Source: an uncultured Pelagibacteraceae bacterium
GTDB lineage: Bacteria; Pseudomonadota; Alphaproteobacteria; Pelagibacterales; AG-422-B15
Length of the DNA: 50,344 bases
NCBI GenBank assembly: GCA_902605215.1
Contig: CACLBX010000004.1
Location: forward strand, 1 to 50,344
Reading direction: 5' to 3'
The notes under the pieces were generated by a model, which did no database searches, was not told where the DNA came from, and saw only the letters and a program-made list of their open reading frames with translations. The position numbers and the translations under genes were made by a program. The first letter of the stretch is position 1, and each line of letters opens with the position of its first letter. This document shows, piece by piece, positions 8,064 to 21,897 of this stretch.

Positions 8064-10499
8064 ATGAAAAAAGTATTTTCGTCAGTTCTTGATAATTATT
8101 CAAAATTATCTTTGTTTCTACTTGTAGCAATTGCTTTTTTTTTCCTATTTAACTCTGATAATTTTCAACTAGACGCATCTTCTGATACTCTCATCTTGGA
8201 ACAAGATGATGATTTAAAAAGATATCAAGAATTAATCAAGGACTATGACTCAAGTGACTTTTTAATTATTACGTTCACGTCAAAACAGAAATTTATTAAA
8301 AAGCAAAATCTTGATTTTTTAAATTCTTTCATTACAGAAATTGAAAATCTTCCTTTTGTTGATTCAACTCAGTCAATCTTTGACGCGCCATTATTAGAGA
8401 TAAATAATCAATCTTTATCAGATCTAGTAAATGAAATAATTACAATTAAATCACCACAAGTAAATATCGCTGATGCTGAGACAGAATTGCTTAATAGTCC
8501 AATTTTCAAAAACTTAATTATTAGTGAAGATGCAACCACTACAGGCTTACTAATTAATCTAAAAAAGAATCTTGATTTCGATGCAATAGTAAATGAAAGA
8601 ATAAGGCTTAATGAGTTGGGTAAAAAAAATGATGCTGAGCGTGAACTTCTATCTCAACTAAATTTCAAATATGAAATTGAAAAAAAGAGACAGGATAAAG
8701 AGAGAGAAAATAATATATTTACTATCAGAACAAAAATTGAGCAATTCGAAGATGAGAATATTAAAATTCATTTAGGAGGCGTTTCAATGATTGCAAATGA
8801 TACTATCGCATTCGTAAAAAATGATATTATTATTTTCGGCATTGGAGCCTTTATTTTTATATTACTTGTGCTCTATCTTGTTTTTAGAAGCCCTTTGTGG
8901 ATGATTGCATGTATAGGTAATTGCATATTCATTTTAATTACTATGATCGGGTCTATTTCACTACTCGGATGGAAAGTAACTGTTATTTCATCAAACTTTA
9001 TCATGCTTATTTTGATCTTATCTTTATCAATGACCGTACATATAGTTGTAAGGTATCGGCAAATAAGTTTGGAGGAGGAAAAATCTAAAATTAATCAAAA
9101 TATTATTCGTGCACTTGGAAAAATGTATAAGCCTTGTCTATTTGCTGCTCTAACAACTATTTTTGCATTTGGATCACTTTATACAAGTGGAATTAAACCG
9201 GTTATGGATTTTGGCCTAATGATGTGCATGGGTCTAACTATCACATATGTATCCAGTTTTATTTTCTTACCAATTTTGATATCAGTCTTAAATTTAAAAA
9301 GTACTGCTCTGCTGGTTAAAAATAATAGTAAAGATGTATTTTCTATCTTATCGATCAAATTCCCAGTATTGACATTATTATTTTTTACATCTTTGTTTGC
9401 TATTGGCATATATGGAGCAAGTACTCTTAAAGTAGAAAATAGTTTTGTTAATTACTTTAAAGAAGATACTGAAATATACAAAGGAATGAAATTGATCGAT
9501 GAACAATTGGGTGGGACTACTCCCTTGGATATTATTATTCAATTCAAAGATGAGCAAAATGATGATTTCTCTTTTGAAGAGGAGGATTTTATGGATTTTG
9601 GAATTGATTATGATCCTTCAGACTACTGGTTTACTAAAGAAAAAATTGACAATGTTAAGAGTATTCATGACTATCTAGAAACGTATGATTTTGTAGGTAA
9701 AGTACTTTCATTGGCATCCATTATAAGAACTGCTGAAAAACTTAATTCAAATGAAGAATTTGATACACTTGAACTCTCAGTTTTATATAAAAAATTACCT
9801 CAAGATATTAAAGATCAAATTTTAAAACCCTATGTGTTGATAGATAAAAATCAGGCAAGAATATCTCTACGTGTAATCGATACTCATCCTGAGTTAAAAA
9901 GAGCAAATTTCGTTAACGAGCTTAGAAAACATATAGAGTCAAATTATAACAATCAAAATATTGAGGTAAGTCTTACTGGAATACTGATTTTGTACAATAA
10001 CATGCTGCAAAGCCTTTTTGATTCTCAAATTAAATCTTTGGGAATTGTTTTAATGGGAATATTTATAATATTAAGTATTTTATTCCGATCATTTAAAATA
10101 GCTTTAGCTGCTTTGATACCGAATTTAGTCGCCTGTTTTGTTATATTGGGAACTATGGGATTACTGAATATACCCCTGGATTTGATGACAATTACGATTG
10201 CCTCGATTACGATTGGAATAGCGGTAGATAATTGCATACATTATGTTTATAGGTATCGTGAATATTTTGCGATAACTGGATCACACGCAGATGCGGTCAA
10301 TAGCTGCCAGAAAACAGTTAGCACTGCAATCAAAAATACTTCGGTAACTATTATGGCAGGTTTCTCAATTTTGGTATTTTCTAATTTTTACCCTACAATA
10401 TACTTCGGAGCATTTACAGCACTTGCAATGTTTATTGCTTTAGTGGGAAGTCTTACTATATTACCGATATTACTCGGGTACTTTAATAAAAATTCATAA
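8064..10499 (+). CDS. MMPL/RND-superfamily (predicted exporter) membrane transporter
   Basis: 811 aa, two repeats of periplasmic domain plus TM bundle; LGGTTPLDI, ITIGIAVDNCIHY, PTIYFG motifs. Confidence 0.85.
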   Translation: MKKVFSSVLDNYSKLSLFLLVAIAFFFLFNSDNFQLDASSDTLILEQDDDLKRYQELIKDYDSSDFLIITFTSKQKFIKKQNLDFLNSFITEIENLPFVDSTQSIFDAPLLEINNQSLSDLVNEIITIKSPQVNIADAETELLNSPIFKNLIISEDATTTGLLINLKKNLDFDAIVNERIRLNELGKKNDAERELLSQLNFKYEIEKKRQDKERENNIFTIRTKIEQFEDENIKIHLGGVSMIANDTIAFVKNDIIIFGIGAFIFILLVLYLVFRSPLWMIACIGNCIFILITMIGSISLLGWKVTVISSNFIMLILILSLSMTVHIVVRYRQISLEEEKSKINQNIIRALGKMYKPCLFAALTTIFAFGSLYTSGIKPVMDFGLMMCMGLTITYVSSFIFLPILISVLNLKSTALLVKNNSKDVFSILSIKFPVLTLLFFTSLFAIGIYGASTLKVENSFVNYFKEDTEIYKGMKLIDEQLGGTTPLDIIIQFKDEQNDDFSFEEEDFMDFGIDYDPSDYWFTKEKIDNVKSIHDYLETYDFVGKVLSLASIIRTAEKLNSNEEFDTLELSVLYKKLPQDIKDQILKPYVLIDKNQARISLRVIDTHPELKRANFVNELRKHIESNYNNQNIEVSLTGILILYNNMLQSLFDSQIKSLGIVLMGIFIILSILFRSFKIALAALIPNLVACFVILGTMGLLNIPLDLMTITIASITIGIAVDNCIHYVYRYREYFAITGSHADAVNSCQKTVSTAIKNTSVTIMAGFSILVFSNFYPTIYFGAFTALAMFIALVGSLTILPILLGYFNKNS

Positions 10500-17344: not shown

Positions 17345-17860
17345 TTAGAAGGAATATTCAAAATTCTGAGTTGTTGGATTATGTCCTAGGAGTTTTGCTC
17401 CATTTCTGATGTGGTAATGAGTGGCCGTTGGTGTCAGAGGAGAGAGAGTTACTATCCTTTTGTACCCCATCTCTTTTCCAAATTTTAGAGCCTCTTCCAT
17501 AATTTTTTTGCCCGCACCTTTTTTTCTCGACCACACAGTATAAGCAATTATTGTATCAGCATTTTGCTCGTAAACGGCCAGTCGGCTCATTAAGTCCAAT
17601 TCTTTTATTGAATGAGGAACATCCTTTGTAAAGGCTAAACACATAATGCCTTCAATTTCATTATTATATTCTAAACCATATATTTTTCTGTCATGAGTGG
17701 TTCTCCATTCAAGATCAAGCTCTGGTCTTACAGGGTCTTCAGCAACATCAATATTATCTAACTCAATAAATTTGGCTGTTTTAATCCATGTAAAATCAGT
17801 AAAATTTAAATTAAATATTGATTTAAAAAAATTTAGAATTTTAAAAAATAATTTTTTCAT
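17345..17860 (-). CDS. Hypothetical GNAT-fold-like protein
   Basis: 171-aa ORF with YTVWSRKKGAGKKIM (acyl-CoA-binding loop-like R/K-x-x-G-x-G) and VTLSP...A.HYH.RNG (motif B-like). Confidence 0.7.
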   Translation of the reverse strand: MKKLFFKILNFFKSIFNLNFTDFTWIKTAKFIELDNIDVAEDPVRPELDLEWRTTHDRKIYGLEYNNEIEGIMCLAFTKDVPHSIKELDLMSRLAVYEQNADTIIAYTVWSRKKGAGKKIMEEALKFGKEMGYKRIVTLSPLTPTATHYHIRNGAKLLGHNPTTQNFEYSF

Positions 17861-17920: not shown

Positions 17921-17941
17921 TTATTTCCACTCAGTAGTAAC
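17921..17941 (-). repeat. Distal att copy of the guaA 3' end
   Basis: + strand ttatttccactcagtagtaac versus guaA end ctactcccactcaatagtacc (20359..20379); the minus strand reads VTTEWK* versus GTIEWE*. Confidence 0.75.
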
Positions 17942-17961
17942 GTAGATTTTATTCTGTTTAA

Positions 17962-17974
17962 TATCAATTATTTA
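17962..17974 (+). promoter_or_regulatory. IHF-like site in the att arm
   Basis: TATCAAttatTTA matches WATCAANNNNTTR and lies between the att core and the arm repeats; AT-rich background lowers specificity. Confidence 0.4.
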
Positions 17975-17992
17975 AACTAACCGCATAGAGCA

Positions 17993-18011
17993 TGTGCAAC
18001 TAATGTGTAAC
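17993..18011 (+). repeat. Tandem arm-type integrase-binding repeats (distal end)
   Basis: TGTGCAAC-taa-TGTGTAAC; the same motif pairs recur at 20239..20258 and 20301..20319. Confidence 0.6.
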
Positions 18012-18194
18012 TCAACAACTACTTTGCACGTTTTCTCCACGCTTAAGTTTTTCAGCTATTATTTCCAACTTAGCAAGACGTTTGGTTTCTTCACCAGTCA
18101 ATTTGCGACGCGGATTTGCCTTTTCAATCCGTTCTTGTAGCATCTTATGGAAGTTACTGTTTGATTGCTTTAGATTATCTAACCATTCGTTCAT
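18012..18194 (-). pseudogene. Truncated hypothetical ORF ending at the island arm repeats
   Basis: 60-aa helical, charged ORF whose last residues (SSC*) run into the TGTGTAAC repeat. Confidence 0.5.
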
Positions 18195-18221
18195 CGGTGG
18201 GTAACACTACAACAAGCTAAA

Positions 18222-19205
18222 TTATCCAACATCAAAGAAACCATAAATATTACGCTCAAAATTTTTAAATGGACTTTCTGTGATGTCAAAAGCCTCTGCA
18301 ATATTTGGCGTAATTCCGTCATAACCGTGTATTATCAGAACACCACCAGAGCATCTAACTAGAAATTTATTATTCGGAAACACATCTACCACAGATCCAA
18401 ATTTGGAGTCTAAGAAAGGATGCGTTTCTAAATCGGTATAGAAAACAGCAGCTCGTTCAATAATAACTTTTTCGCCATTTATATATGAGAAAGCCCCATC
18501 AAAAGGTTCAGTAACAGCCCTAATCAGTCGGTCAATATTGTGTATATCATCTCGCCAGTCGATACTTCCATCTGATGGAGATCGTTTTGGGTAAAAGCTT
18601 TCACCAAAAGCTAGTGATTGAGATCGGGTTGTGCACTTCCCATCCAAAAGATTCTCCAAATTATTCTTAATCAAGCTACACATTGACAAAGTATTTTTAT
18701 AATGCAGTGTTTCAGCGGTGTCATTTTCACCAATACTGAAGGTCTTTGAGTCTAAGATTGGTCCATTATCTATACCAGCTTCATATTTAAAAAGATTCGT
18801 ATGGAATAGTTTTCGCCCTTCAATAAGTGCCCAGTTCATTGGCGATCTTCCCTTTCCAAAAGGAAGGTCCCTTGCGCTTCCATGCATTCCAAACACACCA
18901 ACACTAAACATACTTAGCAACGCCTCTGGGATCAATCTCTGCCAACCGACACAAAATCCGAGAGGGACATGATTTAATTTTTTAATAGCTGTTATATCTT
19001 CATCATTTAGTGAATAACTTTTTGCAACATATATACTTTCAAATATCTTACGTTTAACCACAAGATCTTCATACCCAGCCACATGATTACTTGCAGCCAA
19101 TTCTGTTGAAATGGTAACCAAATGGATTTTCAAATCTAGATTTTTTAAAAATCGTGCTGTATGGAGAGTGGTGTCTTTACATCCAAATAAAATTATTTCT
19201 CTCAT
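18222..19205 (-). CDS. Sugar N-formyltransferase (Fmt/ArnA-N-terminal-like)
   Basis: GWQRLIP, GMHGSARDLPFGKGRSPMNWAL, GIDNGPI, PKRSPSDG.IDW, LIRAVTEPFDGAF. Confidence 0.88.
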   Translation of the reverse strand: MREIILFGCKDTTLHTARFLKNLDLKIHLVTISTELAASNHVAGYEDLVVKRKIFESIYVAKSYSLNDEDITAIKKLNHVPLGFCVGWQRLIPEALLSMFSVGVFGMHGSARDLPFGKGRSPMNWALIEGRKLFHTNLFKYEAGIDNGPILDSKTFSIGENDTAETLHYKNTLSMCSLIKNNLENLLDGKCTTRSQSLAFGESFYPKRSPSDGSIDWRDDIHNIDRLIRAVTEPFDGAFSYINGEKVIIERAAVFYTDLETHPFLDSKFGSVVDVFPNNKFLVRCSGGVLIIHGYDGITPNIAEAFDITESPFKNFERNIYGFFDVG

Positions 19206-19206
19206 C

Positions 19207-19893
19207 TCAATCCTCGTATGTCTTACAGTTAAGGCGAACTTCAGCTGTAAGAAAATCCGAATTATGTTTCCTCCAAAAATTTAATGTCTCTGTAGGACTT
19301 GACCCTTTACTTGTCCACCAAATTGGATGAATTAATAAATGTAAGCCTTGGCTACGATCACCGCATAGGTAATCAGAAATTAGAGGTAAAACATCCCTTC
19401 CTCCTGAGTCCGATAAGTACTTCATCCTCTTGAAATACTTGTCACTATATGTCTGAGGAATGCCATTCAAAGATACATTATTATTATCAAGAAATGGGCC
19501 TGGACGATGTATTGATACAATGTCTACATCAACATTAAATATGTTCTCAAACAATATTTTTTCATGTTCAAAATCTTCTATTGTGTCATGAGCAGTAGGA
19601 TCAAAGTGGATAGAAACCTTATGACCTAGTTTAATTATACTCTTAACCAATCTTTGATTTTCTGATGAAATTAGATTGTACATATTACTTGTCAGCATAA
19701 AGAAGTAGGTCGAGCGTATGCCAAGCTCAGATTCATAAAGCGCTAATTTATGCGCAAAATCTACGCTGAAGTCGATATCATGACGTATTAGAAGAGTATT
19801 TTTCGACTCTATGTCTCTCCAGTCACTTGTGGGAGTTAAATTATTATTCATCAATTTAATAATTAACTTCTTATACTGTTCCAGGCTAAACAT
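19207..19893 (-). CDS. Polysaccharide deacetylase/deformylase, WbmS-like
   Basis: LLIRHDIDFS, STYFF, GHKVSIHFD, SIHRP, YLSDSG, LLIHPIWW. Confidence 0.8.
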   Translation of the reverse strand: MFSLEQYKKLIIKLMNNNLTPTSDWRDIESKNTLLIRHDIDFSVDFAHKLALYESELGIRSTYFFMLTSNMYNLISSENQRLVKSIIKLGHKVSIHFDPTAHDTIEDFEHEKILFENIFNVDVDIVSIHRPGPFLDNNNVSLNGIPQTYSDKYFKRMKYLSDSGGRDVLPLISDYLCGDRSQGLHLLIHPIWWTSKGSSPTETLNFWRKHNSDFLTAEVRLNCKTYED

Positions 19894-20068
19894 CTTTAGG
19901 ATTCCTACCCTCAGCTAATGATCCTTTCAGCATCCCAGCAGTAAAGCCAAACTCTTTGCATAGACGTTTTACTTCTTTCAGTGCGTTAGCACGTTCGTTC
20001 TTCTTAGCTTCAACCATCTACTGCTGAATTGCTTCCATCTCAGCTTTCAATTCGTCATAAGATTTCAT
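19886..20068 (-). pseudogene. H-NS N-terminal oligomerisation-domain-like small ORF with in-frame TAG (not in ORF track)
   Basis: GGAGG SD then MKSYDELKAEMEAIQQ*MVEAKKNERANALKEVKRLCKEFGFTAGMLKGSLAEGRNPKDV*; TAG at 20018..20020 follows CAG CAG; the end overlaps the deacetylase start. Confidence 0.65.
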
Positions 20069-20238
20069 CTCACACCTCCATAGGTTAAGTATCAGCTTAT
20101 ATTATAGATTTGTTAAGGGGATGAACAGCACGTTTTTTCTACGCTTGCCGTAACATTGTTGTACTGTGACGAAAGTATTTCTAAAGCGTCTCACTATGCC
20201 AGTCAGTCACTGCGTCAACGATACAATAGTCACACGTT

Positions 20239-20347
20239 TGCGCAACATTTTGTGTAACTGTATGAAAAAAGACTAAGGAAATCAACGATTGATTTCTAAA
20301 TGTGAAAGTAATGTGTAAGTCATTAATGTAATAAAATCAGTGACTTA
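20239..20347. repeat. guaA-proximal att arm: arm-type repeats and inverted repeats
   Basis: TGCGCAAC/TGTGTAAC (20239..20258), TGTGAAAG/TGTGTAAG (20301..20319), IR GAAATCAA-cga-TTGATTTC (20278..20296), imperfect IR TAAGTCATTAAT...ATCAGTGACTTA (20316..20347, IHF-like). Confidence 0.6.
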
Positions 20348-20358
20348 AACTAGAAAAA

Positions 20359-21897
20359 CTACTCCCACTCAATAGTACCAGGAGGCTTAGAAGTTGTATC
20401 ATAAACTACGCGATTAATTCCTTTTACTTCATTTATAATTCGAGTTGATACTTTACTGAAAAATTCACCACTAAAAGGATAGAAATCAGCCGTCATGCCA
20501 TCTACAGAAGTTACAGCTCTCAAGCCACAAACAAACTCATATGACCTTTGATCACCCATTACTCCAACAGTTCGGACAGGCAATAGAACTGCAAAAGCTT
20601 GCCAGATTTCATTGTATAAATCTGCTGCTTTTATCTCATCAATATAAATTTTATCCGCATGTTGTAACATTCGCACTTTATCTTTTGTAATGTCACTTAA
20701 TATTCGAATTCCTAATCCAGGACCTGGAAATGGGTGTCTTTGAATAAATTCTTTAGGTAATTTTAGCTCTTTACCGAGTCTGCGAACTTCATCCTTAAAT
20801 AATTCTTGTAAAGGTTCGACAAGGCCCAGTTTCATTTCTTTAGGCAGGCCTCCAACATTGTGATGTGACTTGATTACTGAAGTTGGCCCCCCATGAAAAC
20901 TTTGACTCTCTATTATATCTGGATAGATCGTGCCTTGAGCTAAAAATTTTGCTTTAGAGATTTTGCTAGACTCAGCGTTAAATATTTTAATAAATAAATT
21001 GCCAATAATTTTACGTTTTTTTTCTGGATCAGATACTCCTTTAAGGGAAGTGAAGAATCTATTCTTGGCATTAACAGTAATAAGCCTTGATTTAAAATGC
21101 TTTTTGAACAAATTTTGAACTTCCTCAGTTTCATTCAACCTCATTAAGCCAGTATCGACATAGATACATGTTAATTGTTTGTTAATTGCTTTTGAAATTA
21201 TTGCTGCTGTCACCATACTGTCAACTCCTCCAGATAAACCACAAATGACATGGTTTTTTTCGACCTTAATCTTTATTTTGGCAACTTGAGTTTTAAGATA
21301 GTTTTGCATGCTCCATGTAGGTTTAGTTTTGCATATATTGATTATGAAGTTCTTAATTATCATTTCACCTTGATGTGTGTGAACAACTTCAGGATGAAAT
21401 TGAAGACCATAAATATTTAGTTTTTTATTTTCTATGCCCACAAATTTAGAGTTTTTACTTTTCGCTATGGTTGCGAAATCATTTGGCAATTTAATTGCCT
21501 TGTCACCGTGACTCATCCATACATAATGTTGCTTATTTTTTAACTTAATATTTTGAAAGAGCTTACTTTTATGAGTGTGCGTAATTAATGTTTTGCCAAA
21601 TTCGCGTTCCTTTGATATTTCAACCCTACCTCCAAGTTGATGAACTATAAGTTGCATTCCGTAACAAATTCCTAGAATTGGAATATTTAGCGAAAAGATT
21701 TTCTTATCAATTTTTGGTGTACGCGACTTATGAACACTTGCAGGTCCTCCTGAAAATATAATTCCAGTTGGCTTAGTATCCTTAATTTTATGCAACAGGT
21801 TCTTATTACTTACAATTTCACAATAAACGCTGGCCTCTCGAACCCTTCTTGCGATTAATTGAGTTACCTGAGAGCCGAAGTCTACAATATAAATCAT
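20359..21897 (-). CDS. guaA: GMP synthase (glutamine-hydrolysing)
   Basis: DFGSQ, GICYGMQ, QFHPEV, SGGVDS, IKSHHNVGG, HPFPGPGL, SKPPGTIEWE. Confidence 0.99.
   Translation of the reverse strand: MIYIVDFGSQVTQLIARRVREASVYCEIVSNKNLLHKIKDTKPTGIIFSGGPASVHKSRTPKIDKKIFSLNIPILGICYGMQLIVHQLGGRVEISKEREFGKTLITHTHKSKLFQNIKLKNKQHYVWMSHGDKAIKLPNDFATIAKSKNSKFVGIENKKLNIYGLQFHPEVVHTHQGEMIIKNFIINICKTKPTWSMQNYLKTQVAKIKIKVEKNHVICGLSGGVDSMVTAAIISKAINKQLTCIYVDTGLMRLNETEEVQNLFKKHFKSRLITVNAKNRFFTSLKGVSDPEKKRKIIGNLFIKIFNAESSKISKAKFLAQGTIYPDIIESQSFHGGPTSVIKSHHNVGGLPKEMKLGLVEPLQELFKDEVRRLGKELKLPKEFIQRHPFPGPGLGIRILSDITKDKVRMLQHADKIYIDEIKAADLYNEIWQAFAVLLPVRTVGVMGDQRSYEFVCGLRAVTSVDGMTADFYPFSGEFFSKVSTRIINEVKGINRVVYDTTSKPPGTIEWE

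Follow-up and report, generated by a model that had tools for sequence, protein, structure and literature searches.

Bacteria of the SAR11 type rank with the most abundant marine cells, and the usual description has them carrying almost no mobile DNA. We analyzed a 50,344-nucleotide stretch of the genome of an uncultured Pelagibacteraceae bacterium (contig CACLBX010000004.1, henceforth referred to as the window; the genome assembly is 53% complete). The question was how the block at 17942..20358 came to lie behind guaA, the gene for GMP synthase, with a copy of the end of that gene on either side. An earlier note, made from the sequence alone, had proposed a decayed island or a cassette that is moved in trans. 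We conclude with good confidence that the block is the remnant of a small integrative element that lost its integrase by internal deletion and kept both attachment sites, attL and attR. Features lie on the minus strand, that of the target gene guaA (20359..21897, 512 amino acids, Pfam GATase and GMP_synt_C), unless stated otherwise.

Read directly on the plus strand, the last 21 bp of guaA (20359..20379) are CTACTCCCACTCAATAGTACC and positions 17921..17941 are TTATTTCCACTCAGTAGTAAC. The two copies are identical at 16 out of 21 positions and have in common CCACTCA, which is TGAGTGG on the gene strand; the degenerate recurrence and its core are as the earlier note had described them. On the gene strand, the guaA-proximal copy, which we identified as the attL core by comparing the repeats with an empty site, is GGTACTATTGAGTGGGAGTAG, and the distal copy (attR core) is GTTACTACTGAGTGGAAATAA. 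The 13-mer CCACTCARTAGTA, allowing at most one mismatch, is confined within the window to these two guaA-end copies (0.06 expected; two or more in 1 out of 100 shuffles).

The insertion is visible by comparison with the closest relative, G020, whose GuaA shares 98% identity with that of the window and whose flanking DNA shares 94.1% and 97.5%. There, 63 bp separate the guaA stop from the start of the next gene, which encodes a GNAT acetyltransferase, and this uninterrupted site reads GGTACTATTGAGTGGGAATAAGAAAAC on the gene strand. The guaA gene of the window now ends in GGTACTATTGAGTGGGAGTAGTTTTTC, and the distal copy reads GTTACTACTGAGTGGAAATAAGAAGAC and is followed by the spacer found in G020. 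Because the G020 site is uninterrupted and the left flank of the window continues the G020 sequence exactly past the left copy, the block is an insertion of 2438 bp in which the exchange took place within TGAGTGG. The guaA stop codon is TAG in the window versus TAA at the empty site. The distal copy (17921..17941) is the former end of guaA, moved away together with its TAA stop; next comes the original spacer of 60 nt before the GNAT gene, in a flank that matches the G020 site. The island now supplies the last codons of guaA and the TAG. attL and attR repeat each other directly and take in the 3′ end of guaA, with boundaries fixed by G020. The search for an empty site in relatives that the earlier note had suggested thus found one, exactly at the repeat.

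The motif TGYGHAAS occurs just inside both copies, at 17993, 18004, 20239, 20251, 20301 and 20312, all on the plus strand, which confirms the coordinates first given for it. These occurrences make up three tandem pairs of the arm type (TGTGTAAC/TGTGAAAG), at 17993/18004, 20239/20251 and 20301/20312, and are the sole pairs spaced 9-13 nt in the window. As a single motif TGYGHAAS is not enriched (19 in the window versus 13.4 expected; 19 was reached in 7 out of 100 shuffles), whereas the three tandem pairs compare with a mean of 0.01 in 300 block shuffles, none of which reached three. Measured against shuffled sequence, the pairs and the 13-mer core therefore stand out and the single motif does not. 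Exact matches to the integration host factor (IHF) consensus WATCAANNNNTTR number 12 in the window, and one of them lies at the left end (17962..17974). The right end has no exact match and, judged by eye, one-mismatch versions at best. On the level of sequence, the ends resemble a lambda-type attachment site, a functional likeness and not a claim of kinship, with a core, arm-type pairs on both sides (three pairs) and an IHF consensus in the left arm only.

Chance similarity in AT-rich intergenic DNA, with the block being ordinary chromosome, would be in keeping with the unremarkable count of single TGYGHAAS motifs and with the composition of the block, which has no clear foreign signature (GC content of 0.33-0.40, similar to the flanks). 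This explanation is refuted by the empty G020 site lying exactly at the repeat, by relatives that carry two to four near-perfect copies of the guaA end (see below) and by the shuffles of the tandem pairs, and it also conflicts with the twofold occurrence of the 13-mer. We regard it as extremely improbable.

Which enzyme could have carried out the insertion? Scans with Pfam and NCBIfam detected no recombinase family among the open reading frames (ORFs) of 17942..20358, the sole match being a formyltransferase, in agreement with the earlier note. Nearly all of the 60 genomes of the family that we compared encode just two tyrosine recombinases each. The two of the window genome are best assigned to XerD and XerC and are encoded on other contigs. 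Integrases of the cognate type are present at the same site in relatives. In G043, from another genus of the Pelagibacterales, a 408-amino acid tyrosine recombinase (PF00589, 45 bits) starts 148 nt past the guaA stop. With this protein as the query, 3 out of 401 genomes of the order had a match, namely G043 itself, G065 (distant and partial) and G355, and an intact integrase of this family is present in 1 out of 401. In G355, integrase residues 11-204 (G043 numbering, N-terminal part) are fused in frame to a TylF O-methyltransferase right after guaA (locus L091, 8692..10290), with a second core copy 2.2 kb further on. This fusion shows cargo capture via deletion inside a guaA island, in the genus to which most cultured-type SAR11 genomes belong. 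As a separate observation, the G043 integrase is followed by two N6/N4 DNA methylase genes that reach the contig end (L080, 2..2103) and may be restriction-modification cargo.

A large protein collection contained 153 relatives of the G043 integrase (E ≤ 1e-5), most of them 404-412 amino acids long and from marine samples. We used an alignment of 16 such relatives to scan metagenomes and obtained 80 loci. The GuaA C-terminus lies just upstream of the integrase in 40 of them, and a core (≤ 3 mismatches out of 18) was found in 59; most of the 21 coreless loci start inside or at the integrase. Seven loci include both ends; the islands so delimited span 2.7-6.9 kb, and in most of them a small serine recombinase (PF00239) adjoins the integrase. 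In intact metagenome islands at guaA, this serine recombinase has 195-203 amino acids, with a Resolvase N-terminal domain and a helix-turn-helix, and directly follows the tyrosine integrase (L094, 2091..2678; L117, 1427..2014; L122, 1462..2049; L104, 1470..2081); it may serve in resolution or in directional control. Related genomes and metagenomes thus both have, at guaA, a tyrosine integrase whose sites are laid out alike, another item to look for according to the earlier note. Relatives of the G043 integrase were not detected in viral contigs, and in the species-genome collection the protein matched itself only. The arm repeat, the stretch with the fossil start and the backbone stretch (both described below) had no matches in viral contigs. 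A core match in viral contig L053 was discarded as chance, as it lies inside GC-rich coding DNA and has no GuaA or integrase match. A tblastn search of 72,556 plasmid records with the G043 integrase returned one match, a Rhizobium gene with 26.5% identity.

The integrase loci have a common layout that can be compared with the ends of the block. About 50 nt after the stop codon come two tandem repeats of 8-9 nt and, after another 45 nt or so, a third repeat that abuts the integrase ATG; on the distal arms, two more repeat copies occur 55-75 nt before the core. The repeats vary by subgroup (TGACACA, TGACAAA, TTACAAA, GTTTCAAA and others), and in 35 metagenome loci the integrase match starts (at residue 2-8) 120-138 nt from the core end. 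In the window, the pair CTTACACATTACTTTCACA lies 40 nt past the guaA stop, GTTACACAAAATG puts an ATG 110 nt past that stop, and the pair GTTACACATTAGTTGCACA is on the distal arm. The attL arm (20227..20358), recognized from the layout of the integrase-bearing relatives, accordingly holds one pair at 20301..20319 and another at 20239..20258 that overlaps the ATG (20246..20248). The frame after the ATG reads MLRKRVTI, is broken past these eight codons and stops after 13, forming a stump ORF (20248..20207). Contigs of X1, X2 and X4 (three runs, each of a different study) follow the window across 20227..20370 and then part from it, continuing in frame with the ATG as …VTTETRSNSETK. One such contig also departs on the guaA side, which places it in another host background. 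We infer from its position that the deleted gene was most likely an integrase; its continuation past 20227 is visible for 30 nt only and shares just TTET with integrase N-termini such as MTTTETHKYQ (L129).

The adjoining module (19913..20152) belongs to a conserved backbone, as judged from its translation and its likeness to a locus in G095. It contains a 60-codon ORF (20068..19886) with an in-frame TAG at 20018..20020, where all 60 of the printed relatives have Gln; a G at 20020 is present in nine contigs of X2 and four contigs of X4. The TAG points to decay, with the ORF being a pseudogene in the window. The family of this small ORF comprises 2155 protein clusters (E ≤ 1e-3), mostly of 58 amino acids, mostly from short marine contigs and without annotation; a subset carries unrelated C-terminal tails past about residue 55. 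An H-NS-like identity for this ORF was rejected, as it had no Pfam support and a BLASTP comparison with the 59-amino acid ORF of the G355 island was negative.

We favor decay because the attL arm ends in a start codon where intact integrases begin, because contigs continue past 20227 and because the backbone ORF has a nonsense codon. A small element would have entered the last codons of guaA by site-specific recombination of a tyrosine integrase, with the crossover in TGAGTGG. It would have supplied a substitute guaA end (…EWE-TAG) and moved the original end (…TAA) 2438 bp downstream. Later an internal deletion, with one edge near 20226/20227, would have removed the integrase gene, and the retention of attL and attR with their arm-type repeats would make the block a form of cis-mobilizable element (CIME). 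Movement would now occur only with a matching integrase from another element, or by homologous recombination in the conserved flanks. Between the two options of the earlier note, the decayed, integrase-deleted island is the one we prefer. Movement in trans is plausible, with the integrase-less CR2-sul2 unit of the island GIsul2 as its precedent (PMC9376610).

To what extent is the guaA end used by other insertions? We took the 10 kb downstream of guaA from 20 relatives, and the gap from guaA to the GNAT or photolyase gene was readable in 16. The slot has guaB, a TPR gene and guaA on one side and the GNAT and photolyase genes on the other; the GNAT gene (17345..17860, identified with Pfam) is the conserved right-hand neighbor and adjoins guaA in G020. 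Gaps range from 63 bp (empty) to 6.4 kb, and from 0.26 to 6.4 kb where there are multiple repeat copies. Two to four guaA-end copies (≤ 4 mismatches out of 18) are present in 11 out of 17 loci of the genus, counting the window, and the four copies of G002 frame three units in a row. The cargos between the copies differ, a point that the earlier note had proposed to check in relatives, and include a YdhR-like protein of 101 amino acids, a saccharopine-dehydrogenase-like protein, GST-like proteins, methyltransferases, zinc-ribbon proteins and others, nearly all co-oriented with guaA. No recombinase-like ORF was recognized in the ORF listing of these gaps, of which five ORFs were run against Pfam. 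As an observation in its own right, the second-closest relative, G021, has a mini-insert of about 195 bp between two guaA-end copies (L034, ~9800..10010), with one ORF of about 55-62 amino acids that has no family match.

One conserved arm of about 70 nt precedes 9 out of 14 non-guaA core copies, behind unrelated cargos, and the attR arm of the window (17942..18011, with the pair at 17993..18011 and the exact IHF consensus) aligns with it. The arm starts with CTTACAC-AAAA-CTTACAC, the reverse of the TGYGHAAS motif. Its pattern has 14 occurrences, spread over 12 out of the 60 family genomes. All 10 located ones are at most about 1.3 kb downstream of guaA; the remaining four (G041, G048 twice and G067) are outside the located set. 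G001, G016 and G003 have the cassette with the 101-amino acid gene and G018 and G005 lack it, precisely so in both cases and ahead of the same next gene.

These patterns allow for a working, non-autonomous cassette, in which an integron-like slot takes up units of cargo and about 90 bp of arm and core that are inserted, excised and swapped by an integrase acting in trans from rare helper elements of the population. Such a cassette would account for both attachment sites having been kept along with the three arm-repeat pairs. The half of attR that derives from the element, CTACTGAGTGG, recurs in the core beside an integrase in metagenome locus L166, so that the difference between the two copies need not be decay. 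The shared arm behind unrelated cargos, the row of three cassettes in G002 and the precise presence and absence of the 101-amino acid cassette fit as well, as does the contrast between an arm pattern in a fifth of the family genomes and an intact integrase in a single genome of the order. There is also a precedent, since the GIsul2 integrase shifts the integrase-less CR2-sul2 between guaA attachment sites in a recA-deficient host (PMC9376610). However, contigs showed neither a circular junction nor an excision product, the backbone pseudogene and the integrase-start stump point to decay, and precise presence or absence could also arise via homologous recombination between the 20-90-bp repeats or the flanking genes. 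A joint of 17974 to 20128 in one X3 contig was too weak to use, with 21 letters on the shorter side. Taken together, we consider a working cassette possible and rather unlikely.

The block could instead be a dead relic of a single old integration, with the integrase lost and all later variation due to homologous recombination in guaA, the GNAT gene and the repeats. The rarity of the integrase in the order and the nonsense codon in the small ORF are in line with this, as are the host-side half of attR, which is one base off the G020 site (GAGTGGAAATAA versus GAGTGGGAATAA), and relatives that have cargo and no second core (L037 and L040). On the other hand, in contigs from other studies the same attL arm (similarity of 90% or more across 144 nt) is joined to a differing guaA end, which indicates separate insertions of related elements, and many different cargos lie behind one arm type in relatives. 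We judge this account to be nearly, though not quite, an even proposition.

Several observations weigh against an integrase-deleted remnant as we describe it. Many cassettes of relatives start a few nucleotides from the core and have no attL arm, so a model of minimal cassettes fits them as well as repeated deletion does. The G043 integrase, the sole intact one in the Pelagibacterales, has a different arm motif (TCACCTAA), and we recovered no intact element with the window's own TTACAC-type motif. The incompleteness of the assembly leaves room for an integrase elsewhere in the same genome, and the short visible continuation past 20227 belongs here too. Finally, part of the history of the block involves another kind of exchange, as two of its inner modules are found at a site in G095 that is not guaA.

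G095 is from another family of the order, and its GuaA is only about 56% identical. The module at 20152..19913 has 92% DNA identity to the G095 locus. The second module is orf60 (18012..18194), a shortened version of a backbone ORF that reaches 126-139 amino acids in G095; it was recognized with tblastn (74% over 57 amino acids) and by a DNA match (80% over 163 nt, 18023..18185). In G095 (L183, 6660..8114) both modules flank a sulfotransferase domain that is joined to the small ORF past its codon 55, and they adjoin the 3′ end of the 23S rRNA gene with no guaA core nearby. Because the modules flank other cargo in G095, both cargo genes of the window would occupy an inner slot of their own; alternatively, the shared modules may reflect recent exchange with the hypervariable region linked to the rRNA genes. 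We also noted a direct repeat of 19 nt (17/19) at 20128..20146 and 18026..18044 (AAGCGTAGAAAAAACGTGC and AAGCGTGGAGAAAACGTGC on the gene strand), bracketing the small ORF, the cargo and orf60; the second copy in G095 is inside the intact longer ORF.

Cargo gene 1 (19207..19893) encodes 228 amino acids and is probably of the polysaccharide-deacetylase type, a lead provided by the nearest ESM Atlas clusters, which bear that name (score 0.97-0.98). The protein has no match in Pfam or NCBIfam, and phmmer against the PDB sequences gave chance-level matches only (E ≥ 0.4). Cargo gene 2 (18222..19205) encodes a 327-amino acid sugar N-formyltransferase similar to the N-terminal part of ArnA (Pfam Formyl_trans_N and Formyl_trans_C), and its NCBIfam matches to ArnA and formyltransferase are both under the family cut-offs. 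The two predicted proteins look like a pair for surface-sugar modification, co-oriented with guaA.

A broader and more tentative idea is that the guaA end of the Pelagibacterales is a cassette slot at the population level, resembling an integron without a resident integrase. Single-gene units that end in about 90 bp of arm and core would be stacked and swapped by a rare integrase present in few cells, and modules would also be exchanged with the hypervariable sugar-gene region by the rRNA operon. We think this improbable, while keeping it in view. The locus identifies a concrete, site-specific route by which SAR11-type bacteria gain or exchange small gene units, here surface-sugar genes, and it names an enzyme family and cis sites as an experimental handle. 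The mechanism is already known from the guaA islands of other bacteria; what is gained is scope and that handle, not a principle.

We compared the block with known systems. There is ample documentation of tyrosine integrases inserting islands at the 3′ end of guaA, among which GIsul2, ATE-1 and a Brucella IncP island are listed (PMC5704250). The attachment core of GIsul2 is GAGTGGGA (PMC9376610), and the attL of the window and the attB of G020 both have this sequence in the last codons of guaA. Like CR2-sul2, which is moved by the tyrosine integrase of its island, the block is an integrase-less unit between attachment sites. Unlike GIsul2, the window has no integrase next to attL, where G043 and half of the metagenome loci have one beside the GuaA end. 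GIsul2 also differs in its Gamma- and Betaproteobacteria hosts, its size of 15 kb, its replication and transfer genes and its antibiotic-resistance cargo (PMC9376610).

Among streamlined plankton, Ca. Methylopumilus has additive flexible islands with recurring copies of tRNA 3′ ends, for example of tRNA-Lys (PMC10872708). They share with the guaA slot a fixed position with target-end copies of about 20 bp and strain-specific cargo, whereas the target here is protein-coding and a conserved arm of about 70 nt lies beside each repeat. The tycheposons of Prochlorococcus (bioRxiv 10.1101/2020.12.28.424599) are likewise tyrosine-recombinase elements that form cargo islands in a streamlined marine genome. 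They are said to occupy tRNA genes (PMC10872708), whereas the target here is guaA, and ARAGORN finds no tRNA in the window; the words guaA, SAR11 and Pelagibacter do not occur in the preprint. Tyrosine-recombinase elements of Pelagibacter are many and frequently near tRNAs (PMC11876622); "GMP synthase" does not occur in that article, in which "guaA" was not searched. In the literature that we searched, not counting supplements, no paper described guaA islands from SAR11.

The guaA slot would also work much like integron cassettes, in that mostly single genes of one orientation are arrayed behind a fixed site and each closes with a conserved recombination site. Unlike in integrons, no integron integrase lies by the slot, and the repeat is a copy of a host gene end and probably not an attC palindrome; the aligned arms, judged by eye, have a short stem and no inverted copy of the core. 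A close parallel is with the CIMEs of the ICESt1/ICESt3 type, which are decayed integrative elements without genes for integration or transfer that have kept attL and attR (PMC5704250). The block has the corresponding direct repeats of the target 3′ end, neither an integrase nor a transfer gene among its scanned ORFs and a site used by related elements, with tandem accretion in relatives. It differs from CIMEs in its streamlined marine alphaproteobacterial host, in having no known conjugative partner and in its tiny parents (2.7-6.9 kb, with an integrase, a small serine recombinase and cargo). The block is best read as belonging to a marine family of islands that target guaA, as a CIME-like member from which the integrase has been deleted.

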